Assembly: GCA_028823995.1 (NCBI GenBank)
Contig: JAPPFD010000031.1
Location: forward strand, 123,877 to 187,876
Direction of reading: 5' to 3'
Source of the DNA: a bacterium
GTDB lineage: Bacteria; Actinomycetota; Acidimicrobiia; Spongiisociales; ZC4RG35
DNA length: 64,000 bases
Shown: one piece after another, positions 5,625-13,461 of the stretch
How positions within the stretch are numbered: the first letter of the stretch is position 1
Layout: the number at the start of each line of letters is the position of its first letter
Notes under the pieces: generated by a model
Seen by the model: the letters and a program-made list of their open reading frames with translations, nothing else
Databases searched by the model: none
What the model was told of the DNA's origin: nothing
Program-made: the position numbers and the translations under genes

Positions 5625-6812
5625 TCAAAGCGACTTGGCGAGGGGGGCGGCAAGATCGCCGTTGGGCGACACCGACACTTCCCGGGCGCCCAACCACCCG
5701 ACCATGTCCACGAGTTCTGCGGCAAGCTCCCGGCAGACCCTCTCGGTGGCGATGTCGGGCTCGGCGTAGCTGCCCAGCACCAGCAGGCGTTTGGCGCGCC
5801 GGTCCAGCTTGAGGTCCACGCGGGCGACCATCTTATCCCCGAGCAGGAAGGGCAGCACGTAGTAACCGTGGATCCGTTTGGGGCGGGGAATGTAGATCTC
5901 TATCCGGTAACGGAAGTCGAAGAGCCGCTCCAGGCGCGGTCGGTGCCAGACCAGGGGATCGAAGGGCGATAGGAGCGCCCGTCCGCCAACATGGCGGGGA
6001 AGGGCGGCATCGGGATCCAGGTAGGCCGGCTCCGACCAGCCTTCTACCTCGACTTCCCGGATTTCGCCCGACTCCACCAGGTGCGACAGTGCCTTGCGGG
6101 CCGGCCAGATACCCATGCGGTAGTAGTCGGCGAGATCGGCCGCGGTCCCCACGCCGCAGCGCGCCACCGCCAGGCGGAGCAGGCGTCGTAGGGCTTCCGG
6201 GCCCTCGACGGGCGGTTCGTCCAGCGCCCAGGCGGGATGAACCCGCTCGGGGACGTCGAACCATCGGATGAAGTTCGGCCGGTCGGCCACGGTGACCGTC
6301 CCTTTCCAGAACAGCCACTCCAAGGCGCGTTTTCCCATGTTGTGCCCCCACCAGGATCCGCCGGACTTCCCCGGCTCGCTCAGGTCAGAAACCCGAAGGG
6401 GTCCCTCTTCAGCCACCTCCTGGCACACCTGTTGTACGTATTCGGGGTTGTCGTAGTTGACGGACTCGATCCATCCCCGAGGCGTCTCACGCATCCGGTG
6501 GACGAGGAGGGGTCGGTGGCCGATCGGCATCAGGGATCGCTCGTGCCCCCAGTACTCGAAGAGTTCCTGAGACGTCCACAGCCACTGGTCCAGGAGATCG
6601 CGGGGATAGGCGCCCAGCCGGGAGAAGAAGGGGAGATAGTGCGCTCTGGCGAGCACGTTGACAGAGTCGAGTTGTACGACGCCCATCGTGTCGAGGGTCT
6701 CTCGGAAGCCGTCGGCGTCCACCGGCTCCGTGGGGCGGGCCCGCCCAAGCCCGGTGGCGATTATCGCCATCCGGCGGGCCTGGTCCAGGGTCAGTCGCTT
6801 CACATCCGCCAT
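5625..6812 (-). CDS. Winged-helix DNA glycosylase of the YcaQ/AlkZ family (DUF1006)
   Basis: About 395 aa, 'DQARRMAIIATGL' N-terminus and the overall YcaQ-like composition. Start taken at internal ATG 6812 (MADVKRL). Confidence 0.65.
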   Translation of the reverse strand: MADVKRLTLDQARRMAIIATGLGRARPTEPVDADGFRETLDTMGVVQLDSVNVLARAHYLPFFSRLGAYPRDLLDQWLWTSQELFEYWGHERSLMPIGHRPLLVHRMRETPRGWIESVNYDNPEYVQQVCQEVAEEGPLRVSDLSEPGKSGGSWWGHNMGKRALEWLFWKGTVTVADRPNFIRWFDVPERVHPAWALDEPPVEGPEALRRLLRLAVARCGVGTAADLADYYRMGIWPARKALSHLVESGEIREVEVEGWSEPAYLDPDAALPRHVGGRALLSPFDPLVWHRPRLERLFDFRYRIEIYIPRPKRIHGYYVLPFLLGDKMVARVDLKLDRRAKRLLVLGSYAEPDIATERVCRELAAELVDMVGWLGAREVSVSPNGDLAAPLAKSL

Positions 6813-6952
6813 GGGAGGGATCCCGGGGGTGCGGCGGCGTTGGTGGCAGGGCACATCGGATAGGAGCCTATGTTCGTCTCAGCCGCCCTCAGCCTATTTG
6901 TGGCTGGGCGGCGGGACATCGGCAGGTAATCTCACATAAGCGGTGGGACCAA

Positions 6953-8281
6953 ATGAGTCCCCCGGCCGATGAGATGATAGATCGCTACACGCTTCCGGAG
7001 ATGGCCGAGTTGTGGTCGGCTGAGCGGCGCTTAGGCACCTGGAAGAAAGTGGAGGAATTGGCGCTGGAGGCTTGGGCCGAGGCCGGAGTGGCGCCCGCTG
7101 AAGCCGCGACGGCAATCCGGAGGGCGCCGGTTCCCACCCCGAAGCAGGTTGCGGAGCGGGAGGCGATCATCAATCATGACCTCGCAGCCTTTGTCGACGT
7201 CCTGGCGGCGGGCATGGAAGAGGGAGGGGAGTGGGTCCACTACGGGCTTACCTCCTCTGATGTGGTCGACACGGCTGCCGGCGTGATCATGGACGAGGCG
7301 GCCCGCCTGTTGATCGGTGAGGTCGAGCGTCTTTTCACGGTGCTCAGGGAGGCGGCGCTGGAGCATCAGGAGACGGTGATGCTGGGTCGCACCCACGGCA
7401 TGTGGGCTGAGCCCACCTCGTGGGGTCTCAAACTGGCGAACTGGGCCTTCCAGGTGGCCAGGGACCATGAACGGCTCGGCGCCGCCCGCCAAGCGGTGGC
7501 GGTCGGCAAGGTGAGCGGCGCGGTAGGCACCTATGCGCAATGCCCCCCGGCGGTGGAGGAATACGTATGCGCGAGGCTCGGGATCGGATCGGAACCGGCT
7601 TCCACCCAGGTGACGGCCCGGGATCGACACGCCCAGTTGCTGGGCGCCATCGCCTTAGCCGGGGCTTCCCTGGAGCGTTTCGCCACCGAGATCCGTCTGC
7701 TGCAGCGCAACGAGGTGGGAGAAGCGGCGGAGGGATTCCGGCCCGGCCAGAAGGGATCTTCGGCCATGCCCCACAAGAGGAACCCGATCACCTCGGAGAG
7801 AATGGCCGGCATGGCCCGGTTGCTCCGGGGCTACTCGGCGGCGGCGCTCGAGAATGTGGCGCTGTGGCATGAGCGGGACATCAGCCATTCCTCGGCCGAG
7901 CGGGTGATCATCCCGGACGCCTGTACCGTCCTCCACTACATGCTGGTGACCTTCACCGGGTTGATGGAGCGCCTGGAGGTGAACGCGGAGCGGATGAGGG
8001 CCAACCTCGATTCAACCGGAGGCCTGGTGGTCAGCGGGGCGCTTCTCTCGGAGTTGATCCAGCAATCCGGCCTCAGCCGTGACGACGCCTACCGGATAGT
8101 GCAGCGAAACGCTGCGGCGGTGCTTGACGGCGGCAGGGTCCTGTGGGAGGAACTGGCCTCCGATCCCGACGTGACTGTCCCGGCCGACCGGCTGCAAGAG
8201 GTTTCCGACCCGATGAGGTTCCTGGCGGAGACCCCGGTGGTCTTCGATCGACTCCGGGCTCTCAACCTGCCGCCCCACTGA
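6953..8281 (+). CDS. purB: Adenylosuccinate lyase
   Basis: 'MIDRYTLPEMAELWS' PurB N-terminus, fumarate-lyase signature 'GSSAMPHKRNP'. The start could instead be ATG 6974. Confidence 0.95.
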   Translation: MSPPADEMIDRYTLPEMAELWSAERRLGTWKKVEELALEAWAEAGVAPAEAATAIRRAPVPTPKQVAEREAIINHDLAAFVDVLAAGMEEGGEWVHYGLTSSDVVDTAAGVIMDEAARLLIGEVERLFTVLREAALEHQETVMLGRTHGMWAEPTSWGLKLANWAFQVARDHERLGAARQAVAVGKVSGAVGTYAQCPPAVEEYVCARLGIGSEPASTQVTARDRHAQLLGAIALAGASLERFATEIRLLQRNEVGEAAEGFRPGQKGSSAMPHKRNPITSERMAGMARLLRGYSAAALENVALWHERDISHSSAERVIIPDACTVLHYMLVTFTGLMERLEVNAERMRANLDSTGGLVVSGALLSELIQQSGLSRDDAYRIVQRNAAAVLDGGRVLWEELASDPDVTVPADRLQEVSDPMRFLAETPVVFDRLRALNLPPH

Positions 8282-8325
8282 TTGACTGCCGGTTGACGGG
8301 CTATCCCAGCCGGGCTCCTTAAAGG

Positions 8326-8359
8326 GTTTCGGCTGGCGGGCGGACCCACCAGCCGAAAC
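8326..8359. terminator. Bidirectional hairpin between convergent purB and proX-like genes
   Basis: Perfect 11-bp inverted repeat GTTTCGGCTGG (8326-8336) / CCAGCCGAAAC (8349-8359) with a 12-nt loop, followed by an AT-rich tract. Confidence 0.45.
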
Positions 8360-8386
8360 GGTCGATTAATTATGGATTGGGATCAG

Positions 8387-9325
8387 CTACCCGCGGGCGA
8401 TCTCCAGCCAACTGTCGACCCGGTCGCGGTTGGAGGCGATCCAGGCCTCGGCGTCAGCTTGGACATCGGCGTCGGAGTACTCATCGGCCGCAGCCATCTT
8501 GGCGTTCTGAGCGGCGATGTCGCTCAACGGAATCGCCACCACCTCGAGGAGACGGCGGATATCCGGGTTGTCATCCAAGAAGTCGGTGTTGGCCACTGCC
8601 CGGATGTCGTTGACGCCGTGTTCGTACACCCAGACCGCATTGTCCCCGGCAACCAGGGAGTTGGCGGTCCAGTTGGGGGTGTAGGCGTAGAACAGCACCG
8701 ACTCACCGGCATTCACCCGGTCGATGACGCCTCGGACCAGGTCGTCGTAGTTACCGACGATCTGCTCCACGCTGGCGCCCCAACTCTCATCGGCGATCAG
8801 GTCGTTGATCCAGGTGTTGCATCCCCAACCGGCGTTGCATCCGATCAGGTCGGCCTTGCCGTTTCCGTTGGAGTCGAAGACGCCGGCATTGGCGGCTACG
8901 TCAGCCATGGAAGAGATTCCCAACCGGTCGGCCGTGGCCTTGTCGACCATCCAACCCTCGACGCCTCCCTTGGCTACTTCATAGCCGACGGGTTCGATGG
9001 GGAGATCCACCGCTTGTCCGGTGACGTTCTCCCCCTCCAGGAAGATGTCGTGGTTCGGGAACCATCCGTTGGCCCACAGGTCGTACTGCCCGGCGGCTAG
9101 GGCCGGATAGAAGGAGAAGGGCTGCAACTCTGCCAAGGCGGGATCGGTGACCTCGTGTCCGAGTTCTTCGATCAACTGAGCGTAGATGGCGGCCTGCATG
9201 TGACCGGAGGACCAATCGGCCCGGGCCATCGTCACCGGCCGGTCCTGGCCGTCGGTGGCGCAGGCGGAGAGCACCAGCACGAACGCCGCGAGAGCGGCGA
9301 TCAATACATTCGATCTCTTGGTCAT
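8387..9325 (-). CDS. Glycine betaine/choline-type substrate-binding lipoprotein (OpuAC/ProX family)
   Basis: Lipoprotein signal with lipobox 'LSAC', aromatic-cage region 'WANGWFPNHDIF', 'YAYTPNW'. Translationally coupled (ATGA) to the upstream BCCT gene. Confidence 0.85.
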   Translation of the reverse strand: MTKRSNVLIAALAAFVLVLSACATDGQDRPVTMARADWSSGHMQAAIYAQLIEELGHEVTDPALAELQPFSFYPALAAGQYDLWANGWFPNHDIFLEGENVTGQAVDLPIEPVGYEVAKGGVEGWMVDKATADRLGISSMADVAANAGVFDSNGNGKADLIGCNAGWGCNTWINDLIADESWGASVEQIVGNYDDLVRGVIDRVNAGESVLFYAYTPNWTANSLVAGDNAVWVYEHGVNDIRAVANTDFLDDNPDIRRLLEVVAIPLSDIAAQNAKMAAADEYSDADVQADAEAWIASNRDRVDSWLEIARG

Positions 9326-11091
9326 GACGGGTCGCCTCCTCTTCCCAGCCTCTCAAGCAAGCCGCTGTGCTGGGCCTTGAAGATGGCTTCGTCGTAGTGA
9401 CTCTCCAAGAGGTCGAGTTCTTCGTCGAAGGCCTTCTTGAGGCTCCACAGCATGATGAGAAGCACGAACAGGAATGGCAGGCCGGTGGCCACGGCGGCCG
9501 TTTGGAGCGCCGATAGGCCACCTCCCAACAGCAACACGCACGCAACCAGGCCCTCCATGCACGCCCAGAAAACCCGCTGAGGCTTGGGCGAGTCGAGCTT
9601 CCCTCCGGAGGTGAGGTGATCCACGACCAGAGAACCCGAGTCCGACGACGTAACGAAGAACGACACCAACAGCAGGATGCCGACTATCGAGACGAAGAAG
9701 GTCCATGGGAAGGCTTCCAACATCACGAACAGGGCGGTGGCCACGTTTTCGTTCACCGCGGTGGCGACGTCCAGTTCACCGGTCATCTGCAGATTCATGG
9801 CCGCTCCGCCGAACACCGCGAACCACAGGAAGCACAGGAGGCAGGGGAGCACGATCACACCGATGATCATTTCCCGCACCGAGCGCCCCTTGGAGATTCG
9901 GGCGATAAACATTCCGACGAAGGGAGACCAGGAAATCCACCATCCCCAGTAGAAGATGGTCCACCACTGCTGCCATTGGGTCTCGATCAATGCTGCGTTC
10001 CAGAACGAGAACTCCGGCAATATCTGGATGTAGACGCCGATGCTCTCAACGTACAGCGACAGGACCAACAGAGTCGGTCCCACCAACATCACGAACAGCA
10101 GGAACGCCGCGGCCAGATAAACGTTGAGCTGGCTCAGTCTCTTGACCCCTGCGTCCAGACCCGCAACCACCGAGATGGTCGCCAGCCCGGTGATGAAGGC
10201 GATCAGGATGATCTGGAAGCCGGTGCCCGATGGCAGGCCGAAGAGCTTGTTCAACCCTGCGGCAGCCTGACCGGCGCCGAATCCCAGCGAAGTGGCAAGA
10301 CCGAAGAGGGTCGCCACCACCGTCAGGATGTCGATGGCGTTGCCCCATCCACCGTAGATCCTCGGACCGAGAATCGGATAGAAGACCGAGCGGAAGGTCA
10401 GCGGCAGGCCCCGGTTGTAGGCGAAGAATCCCAGGGCCAGGGCTACCAGGCCATAAAGCGCCCATCCATGAATCCCCCAGTGGAGATAGGACGTTGCCAG
10501 CGCTCCTCTTGCCGCGCCCGCTGAAAGGGGCTCGACGTCGAAGAGGGGAGGCGGCGCTGTCAGGTGGTAGATCGGCTCTGCTACGCCCCAGAACATCAAC
10601 CCGATGCCGAGACCGGCGGAGATCAACATTGCGTACCAGGCGCCGGTGGAAAACTCCGGAAGGGCTCCTGGACCGCCTAGTCGAATCTTGCCGTACCTGC
10701 CTAACGCAAAGTAGAGAGCGGCGCCGATGAAGATGTTGAACGCAATGATGTACAGCCAACCAACCTTCTCGTTGATAAAGGTGAGAATGGTGCCGAAAAC
10801 GTCCGCGGCCGATTCCGGGAACAACAGAGTCCAGGCGATGAACAGCAGCAGGAAACCTGCCGCGTAGAACGTCACCTGCGGGTGGATGTCGAATCCCCAC
10901 TTGACAATGTTCTTGTCACCAGGCTCCCGGTCGGCTACCTCGGGATAGAAATCAATATCTGGATCGACTTGGAGGCCCTCGAACTGGGGTCGGTTTTGAA
11001 TGGCCGCCGCACGGCGGCGTTCCTCTTCCTCTTCCCAGTCTTCGTAGGCCTCGGCGATCTGAGTGAGATCGAGATCTTCTTTGTCAGACAT
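9322..11091 (-). CDS. BCCT-family (betaine/carnitine/choline) transporter
   Basis: 12 TM helices, BCCT signature 'WTIFYWGWWISWSPFVGMFIARISKGRS', 589 aa. Confidence 0.9.
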   Translation of the reverse strand: MSDKEDLDLTQIAEAYEDWEEEEERRRAAAIQNRPQFEGLQVDPDIDFYPEVADREPGDKNIVKWGFDIHPQVTFYAAGFLLLFIAWTLLFPESAADVFGTILTFINEKVGWLYIIAFNIFIGAALYFALGRYGKIRLGGPGALPEFSTGAWYAMLISAGLGIGLMFWGVAEPIYHLTAPPPLFDVEPLSAGAARGALATSYLHWGIHGWALYGLVALALGFFAYNRGLPLTFRSVFYPILGPRIYGGWGNAIDILTVVATLFGLATSLGFGAGQAAAGLNKLFGLPSGTGFQIILIAFITGLATISVVAGLDAGVKRLSQLNVYLAAAFLLFVMLVGPTLLVLSLYVESIGVYIQILPEFSFWNAALIETQWQQWWTIFYWGWWISWSPFVGMFIARISKGRSVREMIIGVIVLPCLLCFLWFAVFGGAAMNLQMTGELDVATAVNENVATALFVMLEAFPWTFFVSIVGILLLVSFFVTSSDSGSLVVDHLTSGGKLDSPKPQRVFWACMEGLVACVLLLGGGLSALQTAAVATGLPFLFVLLIMLWSLKKAFDEELDLLESHYDEAIFKAQHSGLLERLGRGGDPS

Positions 11092-11376
11092 ACGAACTCC
11101 TTTCTACTCGTGGGTCGGCCATTTTCGCCTCCTTCTGTCGTCTTAGCTTCTTCTTTACCACCCGCGACGAATTATCTCCGGTAGACCCGTGCAGCGTCGG
11201 CAGGGGGCAAGCATTTTCCCAGCAACCCTACTTATGAACCGGCGGGCGCGTCGCAAAAAGCGGTGACTCTTTTTTTCTTGTTTCACCTGGTGGAATGACT
11301 TCCAATTTCAGGACGGAAAAGGGGCAATTGCACATCGCTTTGCTACCCTTCGGCCCAGCCCACCCGGACACCTTTC

Positions 11377-13461
11377 ATGCGCAGAATCTCCATTGTTGTC
11401 TTGGGAATACTGTCGATAATGCTTGTTTCTCCTCTGGCCGCGGGTATGGTCCAGGTCGAGTCGGGGGACGAAGGCGGTGAAAGACAACCGGTGCGGATGG
11501 CCCGGGCCACCTGGGACACCGGATGGTTCCAAGCCGAGGTTTATCGCCTTTTGATGCAGCGGCTCGGATATCAGGTTGAGGGACCTGTGACCATGGACAA
11601 CGACGAGTTCTACGAAGCCGTGGCGGTTGGCGAGGTGGACCTGTGGGCCAACGGATGGTTCCCGACACAGGACGTCTTTCTTCAGGAGGACCATGTGGAA
11701 TTGGTGGGAACCCAGGTGGACGATGGCGCGCTGCAGGGATACTTCGTGGACAAGGCCACCGCGGAAGCTCACGGGATCACCAACCTCGGGGACTTGGCCA
11801 GCCCCGAACTTGCCGCGCTGTTCGATGAGGACGGGGACGGGTTGGCCGACCTCACCGGGTGCGAGCCCTCGTGGGGTTGCGCGGCGATCATAGATCACCA
11901 CCTGGAGGCCTATGGGTTGAGGGACACGGTCGAACAGGTTCAGGGCGCCTACTCACCCTCGATAAGGGCGACCTTCGATCGGTATCGGTCCGGGCGACCG
12001 GTCCTCTACTACACGTGGACGCCCAACTGGACCGTTGGCGAGCTACAGCCTGGTCGGGACGTGGTCTGGCTCGAGACGCCCTTCCCCTCACTGCCTTTGG
12101 AGCAGGCTGCCTACCTGGACCGGACCACGATCGCCGGGATCCGGGGATGCGCCAACGATCCGTGCCAGGTCGGCTGGCCTCCCAATGACATACGAGTGGT
12201 GGCCAACAGCCGTTTCCTGGAAGCCAACCCATCCATCCGCAGGCTGCTGGAGCAGGTGGTGATCCCGCTGGGGGACATCTCTGCCCAGAACGCCTTGATG
12301 GTGGCCGACGAGGGGGATCCCGAGGACATCCGCCGCCATGCCGAAGAGTGGGTGGACGCCAATCAGGCCCTCGTGGAGGGCTGGATAGAGGCTGCGGACC
12401 CGGAGGCCGTGGGACTGGAAGAAACCGGCGGCGCCATCTCGGCGGCCGGGGGCAGGCTGGCGGTTGCCGTACGCATTCTCCCGCCATTCGTGGTTTATGA
12501 CGACCGCTCCTACAGCGGCTTCGAGGTGGAGTTGGCGCACCTTCTGGCCGCCCGCCTGGGGATGGAAGTCGACATCCACGCGGTGGACACGGTGGCGAAG
12601 CAGATCGATGACATCGACCGTGGCGTCGCCCGGTTGGCCCTGGGGGGAGTGGCAATCACCGAATCCAGGGAGCGGTTGGTCGATTTCTCCTTGCCGGTGC
12701 TCAACACCGGGCTGACCATCATGGCGCCCAGCGAAGCGGACCGGCACATCGGTGATCGCATCCTGATGTTCCTGAGAGCGATTTTCTCCTCGGACCTCCC
12801 CTGGTTGCTGGTGGTGTTCGGGGTGGCGGTTCTGATCTCCGCCCATGTGATCTGGTGGTTGGAACGGCATCACAACGCCGATTTCGCCGTGCCCTACCGC
12901 CAGGGAATCTGGGACTCGTTCTACTGGTCTGTGGTGACCATGAGCACCGTCGGTTATGGCGACAAGGTGGCCAGGGGCGACAAGGGGAGAGTGTTCGCTC
13001 TGATCTGGATAGCCCTGGGAACGCTTGTGTTCGCCAGTTTCACCGCTTCCATCGCCTCATCCCTGGCGGTCAGCGAATTGCGTGGCGAGATCGCCGGCCC
13101 CTCCGATCTACCCGGTCACCGGGTTGCCACGGTCTCCCAGACGTCGGGGGCAGCCTACCTGTCCTCCATAGGGGTGGGGCCGGTGCTGGTGCAGGACGTC
13201 GGGGATGCGTATTCGCTGCTTCAGGCAGGCGAGGTCGATGCGATTGTCTTCGACGCTCCCGTGCTTCATTTCCACGCCTCCCGGGAGGGAGCCGGCGAGT
13301 TGGTGACGGTCGGTCCCGACTTCGAACAGGTCCAGTACGGGTTCGTGCTGAGCCAGGATGACGCCGATTTCCGGGAGCAGGTCAATCTGGCCCTGCTGGA
13401 TCTCATCGAGAGCGGGGTCTATCGCCAACTCCACGACCGGTGGTTCGGTCCGTTGGGTTGA
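11377..13461 (+). CDS. Exported fusion: ProX-type betaine-binding domain plus a GluR0-like ligand-gated K+ channel (PBP3 S1 lobe, M1-pore-M2, S2 lobe)
   Basis: Signal peptide. Residues ~40-350 are paralogous to the ProX at 8387-9325 ('WANGWFPTQDVF', 'YYTWTPNW', 'IRVVANSRFLEANPSIRRLL'). Residues ~360-450 form a PBP3 S1 lobe ('ITESRERLVDFSLPV'), followed by a TM, a pore helix 'WDSFYWSVVTMSTVGYGD', a second TM, and an S2 lobe ('DAIVFDAPVLHF'). There is no third TM, which is the GluR0 topology. Confidence 0.8.
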   Translation: MRRISIVVLGILSIMLVSPLAAGMVQVESGDEGGERQPVRMARATWDTGWFQAEVYRLLMQRLGYQVEGPVTMDNDEFYEAVAVGEVDLWANGWFPTQDVFLQEDHVELVGTQVDDGALQGYFVDKATAEAHGITNLGDLASPELAALFDEDGDGLADLTGCEPSWGCAAIIDHHLEAYGLRDTVEQVQGAYSPSIRATFDRYRSGRPVLYYTWTPNWTVGELQPGRDVVWLETPFPSLPLEQAAYLDRTTIAGIRGCANDPCQVGWPPNDIRVVANSRFLEANPSIRRLLEQVVIPLGDISAQNALMVADEGDPEDIRRHAEEWVDANQALVEGWIEAADPEAVGLEETGGAISAAGGRLAVAVRILPPFVVYDDRSYSGFEVELAHLLAARLGMEVDIHAVDTVAKQIDDIDRGVARLALGGVAITESRERLVDFSLPVLNTGLTIMAPSEADRHIGDRILMFLRAIFSSDLPWLLVVFGVAVLISAHVIWWLERHHNADFAVPYRQGIWDSFYWSVVTMSTVGYGDKVARGDKGRVFALIWIALGTLVFASFTASIASSLAVSELRGEIAGPSDLPGHRVATVSQTSGAAYLSSIGVGPVLVQDVGDAYSLLQAGEVDAIVFDAPVLHFHASREGAGELVTVGPDFEQVQYGFVLSQDDADFREQVNLALLDLIESGVYRQLHDRWFGPLG

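Follow-up and report, generated by a model that had tools for sequence, protein, structure and literature searches.

The DNA analysed here, a stretch of 64 kb that is referred to as the window throughout, contains a gene in which a ProX-type binding domain and a GluR0-type channel are encoded as a single protein, next to genes for a BCCT-family transporter and a free ProX-type lipoprotein. The features of the locus are listed with their coordinates in the window and, for the parts of the fusion protein, with residue numbers:

8387..9325, minus strand: free ProX-type lipoprotein, 312 aa (Pfam OpuAC, E 2.7e-35; lipobox-like 'LSAC')
9322..11091, minus strand: BCCT-family transporter, 589 aa (Pfam BCCT, E 2.9e-185; TIGR00842 above cut-off)
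11092..11376, no strand: divergent intergenic region, BCCT to channel (no Rfam match, sigma-70-like site or conservation)
11377..13461, plus strand: ProX-GluR0 fusion subunit, whole gene including the stop codon (intact ORF of 694 aa)
11377..11448, plus strand: signal peptide or membrane anchor, aa 1 to about 24 (hydrophobic at 4-23; AlphaFold2 helix 2-17, then a low-confidence stretch)
11488..12396, plus strand: ProX/OpuAC-type binding domain, aa 38-340 (Pfam, NCBIfam, phmmer, Foldseek)
12397..12456, plus strand: linker between the layers, aa 341-360 (pLDDT <50 at 345-357; lowest conservation)
12457..12741, plus strand: S1 half of the clamshell, aa 361-455, with R431 (SBP_bac_3 and Lig_chan-Glu_bd matches; alignments to 2pyy and GluN2B)
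12748..12864, plus strand: pre-M1 helix and M1 transmembrane helix, aa 458-496 (AlphaFold2 helices 458-471 and 474-496; hydrophobicity peak; Lig_chan, Ion_trans_2)
12895..12963, plus strand: pore helix, aa 507-523, and K+ selectivity filter TVGYGD, aa 524-529 (AlphaFold2 helix 507-523; motif; Ion_trans_2, E 2.8e-15)
12979..13074, plus strand: M2 transmembrane helix, aa 535-566, equivalent to M3 of iGluRs (AlphaFold2 helix 535-570; hydrophobicity peak)
13075..13458, plus strand: S2 half of the clamshell, aa 567-694, with D626 (aligned to residues 101-223 of 2pyy and to S2 of GluN2B)

The reading frame of the fusion starts with ATG and runs without an internal stop, and a protein identical to the 694-aa product is annotated on a 331-kb metagenome scaffold. 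From the N-terminus, the protein consists of a signal peptide, a complete ProX/OpuAC domain, a linker of about 20 residues, S1, pre-M1/M1, the pore helix, TVGYGD, M2 and S2, an architecture on which Pfam, NCBIfam, a PDB sequence search, the AlphaFold2 model (pLDDT 82, pTM 0.49) and Foldseek agree; architecture, topology and fold are thereby shown. Besides the N-terminal one, hydrophobic segments lie at about 469-491 (M1) and about 540-565 (M2). There is no M4 after S2, as no hydrophobic segment occurs beyond residue 566 in a protein that ends at residue 694. Residue counts given for the window's Acidimicrobiia clade refer to 30 sequences and those for distant members to 10. The signal-peptide segment is weakly conserved in the clade (44%), as is expected for signal peptides. 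As a signal peptide or anchor, it places the ProX domain outside the cell, and an orientation in which ProX domain and clamshell face outward and the re-entrant loop faces the cytoplasm would fit both the placement of the four cysteines, all of which reside in the ProX domain where they form two pairs, and the pore-flanking loops rich in K, R and H.

Clusters that retain the full architecture number more than 120 at 90% identity, derived from many assemblies with Mb-scale contigs among them, and about 12 at 50% identity, and homologues of the fusion reach down to 33-35% identity in lineages with 38-63% GC. The possibility that a proX gene and a gluR0-like gene were merged by a frameshift or in a chimeric contig is thus all but excluded. 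No support for it was found, even though the database name 'ProX' alone could have masked a mis-call; the ORF of the 690-aa class recurs in independent clusters and many assemblies at the identities just given, and the reading frame is continuous across the linker. A sequence-only reading of this DNA had claimed a single 694-aa polypeptide with a signal peptide, a complete OpuAC/ProX domain, a split PBP clamshell with an Arg in S1 and an Asp in S2, and M1, a pore helix, TVGYGD and M2, and all of these claims held at the coordinates it gave, with the reservation that the N-terminal segment may be an anchor. It would have been refuted by an N-terminal fold other than OpuAC/ProX, by the lack of a P-loop between two transmembrane helices or by a frameshift merging two genes. 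When checked, the fold proved to be that of ProX, the P-loop was present and the fusion was found to be conserved.

The N-terminal domain is a complete class II PBP fold of the OpuAC family with an intact Trp box; that it binds betaine is inferred. Pfam OpuAC (PF04069) matches residues 38-327 (E 2.7e-45), the NCBIfam ProX equivalog NF008334 covers residues 25-341 with 345 bits, well above its cut-off of 215, phmmer relates the domain to Escherichia coli ProX (1r9l) with E 1.3e-64 and 36% identity, and Foldseek matches the N-terminal half to the same structure, which is that of ProX with glycine betaine, with a TM of 0.90. Our view of the pocket geometry is based solely on the sequence alignment to 1r9l. 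In this alignment, W94, W166 and W214 correspond to W65, W140 and W188 of ProX, the aromatic box that receives the trimethylammonium head group, C136 and C142 of ProX are aligned to identical residues, and G167 and C168 match the backbone donors of ProX and are conserved. At position 98, the equivalent of ProX H69, the window's protein has Gln, whereas 25 of 30 relatives have His. The Trp box and both cysteine pairs (C162/C168 and C258/C263) are present in 30 of the 30 proteins of the clade. The pair C258/C263 was ruled out as a signature of the fusions since it is common in free ProX proteins, the closest representatives of which are 52-57% identical to the ProX domain of the fusion.

The remainder of the protein is a channel module. 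Pfam SBP_bac_3 matches residues 364-691 (E 5.9e-25) and is split by the membrane part, on which Ion_trans_2 (residues 483-563) and Lig_chan (residues 476-581, E 2e-11) were found, while Lig_chan-Glu_bd (residues 370-451) stays slightly below its cut-off with 28.0 versus 30 bits. Foldseek matches the C-terminal half to LBD-TMD chains of AMPA receptors with E of about 1e-20. R431 in 'AITESR' and D626 in 'VFDAP' align with the ligand-binding Arg ('EER') and Asp ('YDA') motifs of GluN2B. The former is invariant in all fusions aligned (alignments A1 and A2), the latter in 30/30 proteins of the clade, and the filter TVGYGD is present in 30/30 clade members and nine of the ten distant ones; with 89% identity the pore is the best-conserved part of the fusion. 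Both residues by which an agonist is held, Arg at the alpha-carboxylate and Asp at the alpha-amino group, are thus kept in the clamshell, from which we infer, without binding or current data, an amino-acid agonist. Five residues before the S1 Arg, the fusion has Ala where GlnBP has Thr and the Nostoc GluR0 has Ser, and it is therefore possible that the agonist is not glutamate.

The closest known channels are GluR0 from Synechocystis PCC 6803 and Nostoc punctiforme, which have in common with the fusion the topology S1-M1-P-loop-M2-S2, the filter TVGYGD, the absence of M4, both termini outside and a clamshell with a carboxylate-binding Arg and an amino-binding Asp. Among solved structures, residues 361-451 and 569-692 are matched best by the LBD of Nostoc GluR0 (2pyy), and plain GluR0-type representatives are about 35-40% identical to the channel module. 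However, GluR0 comprises only about 350-400 aa with one clamshell, to which the fusion adds a ProX domain of about 300 aa and the linker at the N-terminus. Topology, filter and agonist-contact residues fit membership in GluR0 but the OpuAC domain of 300 aa ahead of S1 violates its minimal architecture, and we therefore classify the fusion as a GluR0 variant rather than a canonical member. In eukaryotic iGluRs (AMPA, kainate, NMDA and plant GLR), the pore-gating LBD is likewise topped by a distal PBP-like domain on a linker, and GluN2A, GluN2B and GLR3.4 align to residues 416-690, over LBD and TMD. Their distal domain is of class I (LIVBP/ANF_receptor), whereas that of the fusion is of class II (OpuAC/ProX), and a Pfam search of the fusion for PF01094 and Peripla_BP_6 yielded no match at E below 0.1. 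Moreover, eukaryotic iGluRs have M4 and a non-selective cation pore, in contrast to the fusion, which lacks M4 and is K+-selective judging by its filter. Because of these differences in fold class, M4 and pore, the distal layer was likely acquired independently of the eukaryotic ATD. ProX/OpuAC proteins of ABC importers (ProU, OpuA), for which E. coli ProX is the example, share the Trp box, C136-C142 and the backbone donors with the fusion, yet are free or lipid-anchored partners of an ABC permease, while the ProX domain of the fusion is covalently joined to a channel. Two bilobed binding modules in series also occur in the periplasmic domain of BvgS and in SBD1-SBD2 of GlnPQ, and Foldseek returns 4q0c and 6h30, but these proteins are a sensor kinase (BvgS) and an ABC importer (GlnPQ).

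The BCCT gene is transcribed divergently from the channel gene, and the gene for the free ProX is translationally coupled to it by an overlap of 4 nt. Among equivalogs, the best-scoring one for the BCCT protein is the glycine betaine BCCT model, yet the score stays under that model's cut-off. With only 37% identity to the ProX domain of the fusion, the free ProX is a distant paralogue and not a recent duplicate. As is shown by comparison of loci, the BCCT gene adjoins the channel gene in nine of the nine Acidimicrobiia-type loci examined, the free ProX is likewise a conserved neighbour, and the adjacency of channel, BCCT and ProX persists in three arrangements (divergent, co-linear and convergent) and in differing outer contexts. 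As a family-wide trait, the BCCT linkage was rejected, since it is absent from fusions outside the Acidimicrobiia. For the intergenic region, neither the Rfam search (no match even at E up to 1) nor the search for a sigma-70-like site (none found) nor comparison with five relatives (no conservation) left room for a riboswitch or conserved operator, which we consider ruled out; a hairpin with a T-run at 11249-11265 is not conserved. A tblastn search of the 64-kb window with a ProW-containing probe found no ProW-type permease, and a ProVW-type ABC permease as the true partner of either ProX is thus not available within the window. Because the domain is joined to an ion channel and neither ProW nor ProV is encoded in the window, the name 'ABC transporter substrate-binding protein ProX', under which databases list the fusion, is misleading.

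These data bear on the idea that the ProX domain, as a substrate-binding domain tethered to the membrane, captures betaine for the neighbouring BCCT or for an ABC importer encoded elsewhere, with the channel part serving mainly as an anchor. Fusions of such domains to membrane proteins exist (e.g., OpuA, GlnPQ and the BPD_transp_1-OpuAC fusion P0192), and the constant proximity of the BCCT in the clade speaks in its favour. Nevertheless, it appears very unlikely: the operon already provides a free ProX lipoprotein, no BCCT carrier is known to rely on a binding protein, a ProW-type permease is missing from the window, no BCCT lies beside the fusions outside the Acidimicrobiia, and a pore that is the best-conserved part of the protein with an invariant filter is not what a mere anchor would exhibit.

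Residue conservation, which is shown by the alignments, puts the ProX domain under a constraint at least equal to that on the clamshell. Within the clade, which has diverged to 70% identity, the ProX domain is 80% identical as compared to 72-76% for the clamshell, and among distant members the values are 46% versus 38-39%. The linker is the least-conserved segment (53% in the clade, 13% in distant members). In the distant fusions P0124, P0126, P0131 and P0133 one tryptophan of the box is lost, and in P0126, P0127, P0131, P0133 and P0122 the S2 Asp is lost or replaced while the ProX domain is kept; ligand use is therefore not uniform across the family. Tandem paralogue pairs of fusions exist (P0122 with P0133, P0131 with P0126). 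Neighbor-joining trees calculated for the origin of the fusion are star-like and without support values, and a few plain or free sequences, which may be fragments, nest among the fusions; a single origin is possible, with the trees being no more than suggestive.

It remains possible that the ProX domain merely adds a structural layer to a K+ channel gated by an amino acid, for assembly, stability or envelope anchoring like the ATD of AMPA receptors, and that osmolyte binding, should it occur, leaves gating unaffected. In favour of this alternative, the linker is flexible, poorly conserved and of low confidence, packing between the domains is not predicted, positions of the Trp box are lost in some distant members, and the tandem pairs suggest that the N-terminal layer could steer subunit assembly. 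On the other hand, a purely structural layer would not be expected to retain every ligand-contact residue of ProX in 30/30 proteins at a divergence to 70% identity or to score above an equivalog cut-off, and this alternative does not explain why a betaine-type carrier and a second ProX are conserved neighbours.

The reading that we prefer, with a rough probability of 0.55, is that the protein forms a tetrameric K+ channel gated by ligand, in which the distal ProX layer acts as a sensor for a betaine-type osmolyte and thereby modulates gating; ligands, tetramer, coupling, gating and conduction are inferred. The protein would be a subunit of a K+-selective channel of the GluR0/iGluR family, probably tetrameric, with an extracellular part in two layers. 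The membrane-proximal layer would be the S1/S2 clamshell, connected to M1 and M2 in the manner of glutamate receptors, and the membrane-distal layer would be the ProX domain, held by its flexible linker at the position of the amino-terminal domain in eukaryotic glutamate receptors. In the mechanism proposed as most likely, opening of the pore is brought about by the clamshell. A quaternary-amine osmolyte from outside the cell, such as glycine betaine, proline betaine or a relative of these, would bind to the ProX layer and thereby shift the equilibrium of gating allosterically, much as the allosteric modulators bound by the ATDs of NMDA receptors do. In Acidimicrobiia, the channel, the adjacent BCCT carrier and the free ProX may together match K+ flux to the availability and uptake of compatible solutes, either through an influx of K+ by which a K+-dependent BCCT carrier is activated or through K+ release after betaine has replaced K+-glutamate. 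Ligand identities, layer coupling and the direction and sign of the effect are likewise inferences. Several precedents exist: GluR0 of Synechocystis has a role in K+ flux and cell-volume control (PMC13099474), the OpuAC-type protein CosB signals via the chemoreceptor CosT (PMC8050422), and full activation of the BCCT carrier BetP requires raised internal K+ (bioRxiv 10.1101/2022.06.02.493408). In the EhuB-GluR0 chimera, an ectoine-binding SBP engineered onto the GluR0 pore can gate that pore, but this construct is artificial and its SBP, that of a compatible solute, replaces the clamshell, whereas in the fusion a second layer is added (bioRxiv 10.1101/2021.01.27.428399).

Against modulation, the linker is long, poorly conserved and predicted with low confidence, and as the pTM is also low, the model defines no interface between ProX and clamshell. 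AMPA-receptor ATDs on similar linkers affect gating little. It also counts against our reading that the BCCT linkage is missing outside the Acidimicrobiia, that some distant fusions have lost Trp or Asp positions and that the sequence does not reveal which way K+ would flow. The sequence-only reading had suggested an osmolyte-gated or osmolyte-modulated K+ channel without described precedent, encoded near a paralogous ProX and a divergent BCCT-ProX operon. The operon claim held, the paralogue claim held in the refined form of a distant paralogue, and the lack of precedent is consistent with the literature searched. The functional suggestion is strengthened, because the Trp box is invariant in the clade, the ProX domain is conserved like the clamshell and the BCCT/ProX linkage outlasts rearrangement, but it is unproven, and given the flexible linker 'modulated' is more likely than 'directly gated'.

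A stronger version makes the ProX domain the primary gate: in its betaine-loaded, closed form it would dock on the clamshell as a tethered co-ligand, with the clamshell acting as a relay that needs no amino acid. Docking of an SBP on a receptor is an established mode of signalling (PMC8050422), a compatible-solute SBP drives the GluR0 gate once engineered in, and some distant members retain the ProX domain although their S2 Asp is replaced. We nonetheless regard this version as unlikely, as a docking interface is not predicted and the invariance of S1 Arg and S2 Asp in the window's clade argues that the clamshell still binds an alpha-amino acid.

Relatives include proteins with a non-K+ pore (GREGWG), proteins with a doubled ProX layer and adjacent pairs of paralogues. 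A bolder proposal, toward which we lean less than away from it, is that bacteria independently invented the two-layer design of glutamate receptors with a ProX osmolyte sensor on top, such that an extracellular betaine-type solute, alone or with an amino acid, is converted into K+ flux. Were this true, the K+ phase of osmoadaptation would be coupled to the compatible-solute phase that follows it, feed-forward onto a K+-activated BCCT carrier next door would be possible, and the relatives with GREGWG pores, doubled ProX layers or paired genes would be heteromeric, NMDA-receptor-like bacterial channels.

In the literature searched, no prior description of a ProX-GluR0 fusion channel was found. 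If the ProX layer controls the pore, the fusion would become the first known example of a natural channel that a compatible solute gates or tunes, and a molecular candidate for linking betaine uptake with K+ movement in osmoadaptation. It also offers a small bacterial model, tractable for expression and structure determination, of how a distal layer communicates with a ligand-binding layer, and a ready-made scaffold for betaine or choline biosensors. Its database name hides the family from channel surveys; fusions of this type are common in marine and sponge-associated Acidimicrobiia and are present in cyanobacteria.

The gene at 11377-13461 encodes a member of the ionotropic glutamate receptor (iGluR) family that is widespread and mis-annotated. 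Its architecture, a GluR0-type pore and clamshell joined to a ProX domain, is shown, whereas its work as a K+ channel with an osmolyte-binding top layer is inferred. The profile evidence is as follows.

11377-13461, + strand: channel ORF, ATG start, no interruption, 694 aa
Residues 38-327: OpuAC (Pfam, E 2.7e-45)
Residues 364-691: SBP_bac_3, split by Ion_trans_2 and Lig_chan (Pfam, E 5.9e-25)
Residues 483-563: Ion_trans_2 (Pfam, E 2.8e-15)
Residues 476-581: Lig_chan (Pfam, E 2e-11)
Residues 370-451: Lig_chan-Glu_bd (Pfam, slightly under its cut-off)

Among the NCBIfam models, the ProX equivalog NF008334 scored 345 bits (cut-off 215) over residues 25-341, and the remainder of the protein gave partial matches to GlnH-type amino-acid-binding proteins and K+ channel models. 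Hydropathy analysis revealed three strongly hydrophobic segments and no more (4-23, ~469-491 and ~540-565); TVGYGD (residues 524-529) lies between the second and the third, and as the protein ends after S2, there is no M4. Upstream of the start codon at 11377 there is no obvious Shine-Dalgarno sequence.

An AlphaFold2 model built from a 40-sequence alignment had a mean pLDDT of 82 (ProX domain ~90 or above, clamshell 84-92, membrane part 70-83) and predicted helices for pre-M1 (458-471), M1 (474-496), the pore helix (507-523) and M2 (535-570). Confidence was low at 16-35, past the signal sequence, in the inter-layer linker (345-357) and at 455-458, 566-568 and 526-528, the last being filter residues for which this is expected in a monomer model; with a pTM of 0.49, the relative position of the two layers is undefined. 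The best Foldseek match in the PDB was ProX with glycine betaine (1r9l; E 3.8e-29, TM 0.90 normalised to ProX, 36% identity), followed by many AMPA-receptor LBD-TMD chains (E ~1e-20, TM up to 0.59, ~370 columns); tandem-PBP proteins, namely GlnPQ SBD1-SBD2 (6h30) and the BvgS periplasmic domain (4q0c), were also matched. The ProX domain is complete, its pocket is intact and it sits on a flexible tether. Its placement outside the cell is inferred from the N-terminal hydrophobic segment; all four cysteines fall within the ProX domain as two pairs, which would fit extracytoplasmic disulfides. The pore loop is flanked by segments rich in basic residues ('ERHHNADFAVPYRQ' and 'GDKVARGDKGR'), as expected for a P-loop that enters from the cytoplasmic side, an orientation inverted relative to KcsA that has been shown experimentally for Synechocystis GluR0 (PMC13099474).

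That the fusion is an artefact can be all but excluded. Among 5.8 billion clustered proteins searched, 707 matched, and the best 120, on which the architecture was read, are all 70-100% identical, nearly all 650-750 aa long and all equipped with OpuAC, SBP_bac_3, Lig_chan and Ion_trans_2. Those that bear a name in their source carry the ProX name quoted below and come from MAGs of Acidimicrobiia or Acidimicrobiaceae and from 'Candidatus Poriferiso…'. Exhaustive HMMER searching of 1.84 billion 50%-identity representatives added ~12 full-length clusters at 35-49% identity, with the architecture verified by Pfam in every cluster tested. In one-genome-per-species contigs, at least five Acidimicrobiia-type genomes, Ca. 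Aldehydirespiratoraceae among them, carry the fusion, as does one cyanobacterial MAG (48% identity); these counts are lower bounds, as a ProX-domain pattern was used. Contigs with distant members have a GC content of 38-49%, against 63% in the window. The sequence-only reading had proposed a fusion of ProX with a GluR0 module at 11377-13461; ORF, Pfam, NCBIfam and fold confirm it, and its anatomical interpretation is likewise supported. An OpuAC/ProX fold is present, TVGYGD sits between two hydrophobic segments, and the uninterrupted ORF and the recurrence in the best 120 matches rule out merged genes.

In neighbour-joining trees without support values, the channel modules and the ProX domains of the fusions mostly group together, with a small number of plain or free sequences, which may be fragments, nested among them; a single old fusion lineage is a possible explanation that is not proven. 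The channel and seven homologues (P0010, P0013, P0014, P0017, P0075, P0110 and P0118) are publicly named 'glycine betaine/L-proline ABC transporter substrate-binding protein ProX', since the N-terminal half of these 690-aa channels triggers the ProX equivalog model; this systematic mis-annotation conceals the channel. One IMG entry among the homologues bears a composite automated name.

Residues 42-340 align to E. coli ProX (1r9l/1r9q; phmmer against PDB sequences, E 1.3e-64). Counted along this alignment, W94, W166 and W214 correspond to ProX W65, W140 and W188, which form the cation-pi box around the trimethylammonium group, and C162-C168 corresponds to the C136-C142 pair, with the G141/C142 backbone positions retained. 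Where ProX has H69, the window carries Q98 and 25 of 30 close relatives have H. The ligand-binding core of Nostoc punctiforme GluR0 (2pyy, E 2e-37) matches residues 361-451 and 569-692, and residues 416-690 align to GluN2A, GluN2B and plant GLR3.4 through S1, membrane domain and S2. By alignment, R431 ('AITESR') falls on the Arg in the 'INEER' motif of GluN2 and D626 ('VFDAP') on the Asp in 'IYDAA'; from established structural knowledge of iGluRs, we take them to hold the alpha-carboxylate and the alpha-amino group of the agonist, respectively. We leave the agonist unnamed because five residues ahead of R431 there is Ala, where GlnBP has Thr and Nostoc GluR0 Ser. W94, W166, W214, C162, C168, C258, C263, R431, D626 and TVGYGD are each present in 30/30 clade members (70-100% identical).

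Mean identity to the window protein by segment: clade (n=30); distant members
ProX domain: 0.80; 0.46
S1: 0.76; 0.38
S2: 0.72; 0.39
Membrane domain: 0.89; 0.42
Linker: 0.53; 0.13

The ProX layer is therefore constrained at least as much as the clamshell. This constraint and the fully kept pocket argue for a working binding site, an inference made without binding data. It remains possible that ProX is only a structural layer, although conservation of its pocket weakens this view; that ProX is the primary gate and the clamshell a relay is unlikely in view of the invariant Arg and Asp. Distant lineages show a looser pattern: one Trp of the box has given way to another residue in P0124, P0126, P0131 and P0133, and the S2 Asp to S, H or Q in P0126, P0127, P0131, P0133 and P0122.

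Two genes adjoin the channel gene.

9322-11091, - strand: BCCT transporter, 589 aa
8387-9325, - strand: free ProX-type protein, 312 aa, lipobox-like 'LSAC'

The start of the free ProX gene and the BCCT stop share 4 nt (9322-9325), so that a lipoprotein is translationally coupled to a secondary carrier. To our knowledge, no BCCT carrier uses a binding protein, which makes this conserved operon odd in its own right. A spacer of 285 nt separates the pair from the divergently transcribed channel gene; within it, ~110 nt ahead of the channel start, lies a terminator-like hairpin with a T-run behind it (11249-11275, + strand), which has no Rfam match and is not kept in relatives. In each of the nine Acidimicrobiia-type loci that were examined, BCCT and free ProX genes adjoin the channel gene. 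These loci are the window (which is also L001), the near-duplicates L002/L003, and L004, L005, L006, L007, L009 and L037; the arrangement is divergent in most, co-linear as BCCT -> ProX -> channel in L006 and convergent in L007. At 72% identity, the three-gene unit is intact though its outer flanks have changed (UvrA/UvrC replace PurB/MsrA). Linkage of the channel gene to a betaine-type carrier is thus shown for the Acidimicrobiia clade, and because it outlasts rearrangement, a shared function is well supported. It is clade-specific: neither the cyanobacterial locus nor any of three low-GC loci has BCCT beside the fusion. In one low-GC locus lacking BCCT (L087, from a 39%-GC lineage; fusion P0125, 41% identical), the fusion is flanked upstream by a divergent Na+/H+ exchanger-Usp fusion gene (6031-7737) and downstream by a 519-aa NMT1_3-type binding protein (10350-11909), another ion-homeostasis context replacing BCCT and ProX.

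Identity of the channel's ProX domain is only 37% to the adjacent free ProX, against 52-57% to the closest free representatives elsewhere; judging by these values, the paralogy proposed earlier to the ProX of the divergent BCCT-ProX operon holds, and the paralogues are old. No ProV/ProW ABC components, including any ProW-type permease, occur in the 64-kb window. That the ProX part is a tethered binding domain serving a transporter is very unlikely, since a free ProX already exists, a permease is missing and the pore is highly conserved.

We favour, at a probability of roughly 0.55, a K+ channel modulated by osmolyte binding to the ProX layer; ligand and gating are inferred, and the osmolyte-gated or -modulated function first suggested has become more plausible without ceasing to be inference. 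By homology to K+ channels and iGluRs, the channel would be a tetramer in which an alpha-amino acid closes the clamshell and opens the pore. The ProX layer would bind glycine betaine, proline betaine or a like quaternary amine, and its occupancy may shift gating allosterically, by analogy with ATD ligands in NMDA receptors. Modulation is favoured over direct gating because only the clamshell is wired to M1/M2 and the linker is long and variable. During osmoadaptation, K+ (with glutamate) is accumulated first and later swapped for compatible solutes (summarised in PMC13099474), and BetP, a BCCT carrier, is fully activated only at raised internal K+ (bioRxiv 10.1101/2022.06.02.493408). A betaine-sensing channel may let K+ in, switching on the BCCT carrier, or alternatively let K+ out while betaine builds up; sign and direction cannot be read from the sequence. 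OpuAC-type CosB signals through the CosT transducer (PMC8050422), and a GluR0 pore has been gated by an ectoine-binding protein engineered in the clamshell's place (bioRxiv 10.1101/2021.01.27.428399).

The fusion belongs to the GluR0/iGluR superfamily and is inferred to work alike, but its extra domain departs from the 'minimal architecture' of GluR0, and it lacks the LIVBP-type ATD and the M4 of eukaryote-type iGluRs. Its N-terminal half is a genuine ProX by profile, fold and pocket, yet not an ABC-transporter partner. OpuAC/ProX is not among the architectures of a 2010 survey of prokaryotic iGluRs (PMC2950845), and a review of SBP signalling contains no occurrence of ion channel, Lig_chan or glutamate receptor. 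The claim that no case had been described holds within the open-access literature searched, though an undetected description is not excluded. The fusion should interest, and surprise, specialists in glutamate receptors and osmoregulation, and its function is directly testable.

Variant fusions occur in pairs. On a Logan contig (SRR14610174, 38% GC; L085), two fusion genes lie back to back (8001-13097): P0122, a 1008-aa subunit with two tandem ProX domains ahead of clamshell and pore, and directly after it P0133 (689 aa). In both, 'GREGWG' replaces TVGYGD and Ion_trans_2 finds no match, which suggests a heteromeric, non-K+-selective channel. A 606-aa cNMP_binding protein (6194-8014) overlaps the start of the double-ProX gene by 14 nt, and the contig also carries GCV_T, GMC oxidoreductase (choline-dehydrogenase family) and MetH-like genes, a conceivable link to betaine and one-carbon metabolism. 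A second adjoining pair from the same sample (L086, 5981-10073), P0131 (675 aa) and P0126 (690 aa), has genes overlapping by 8 nt, TVGYGD in both proteins and, instead of the middle box tryptophan, N or A at the position of W166; heteromers are again a tentative inference from the pairing. Closely related ProX/OpuAC domains sit on quite different partners in P0137, P0141, P0149, P0151 and P0204 (WD40 propellers, SBP_bac_11 with VWA, caspase with PEGA, Peripla_BP_6 and pore-less SBP_bac_3), and the module appears to be in wide reuse as an extracellular sensor or adaptor.
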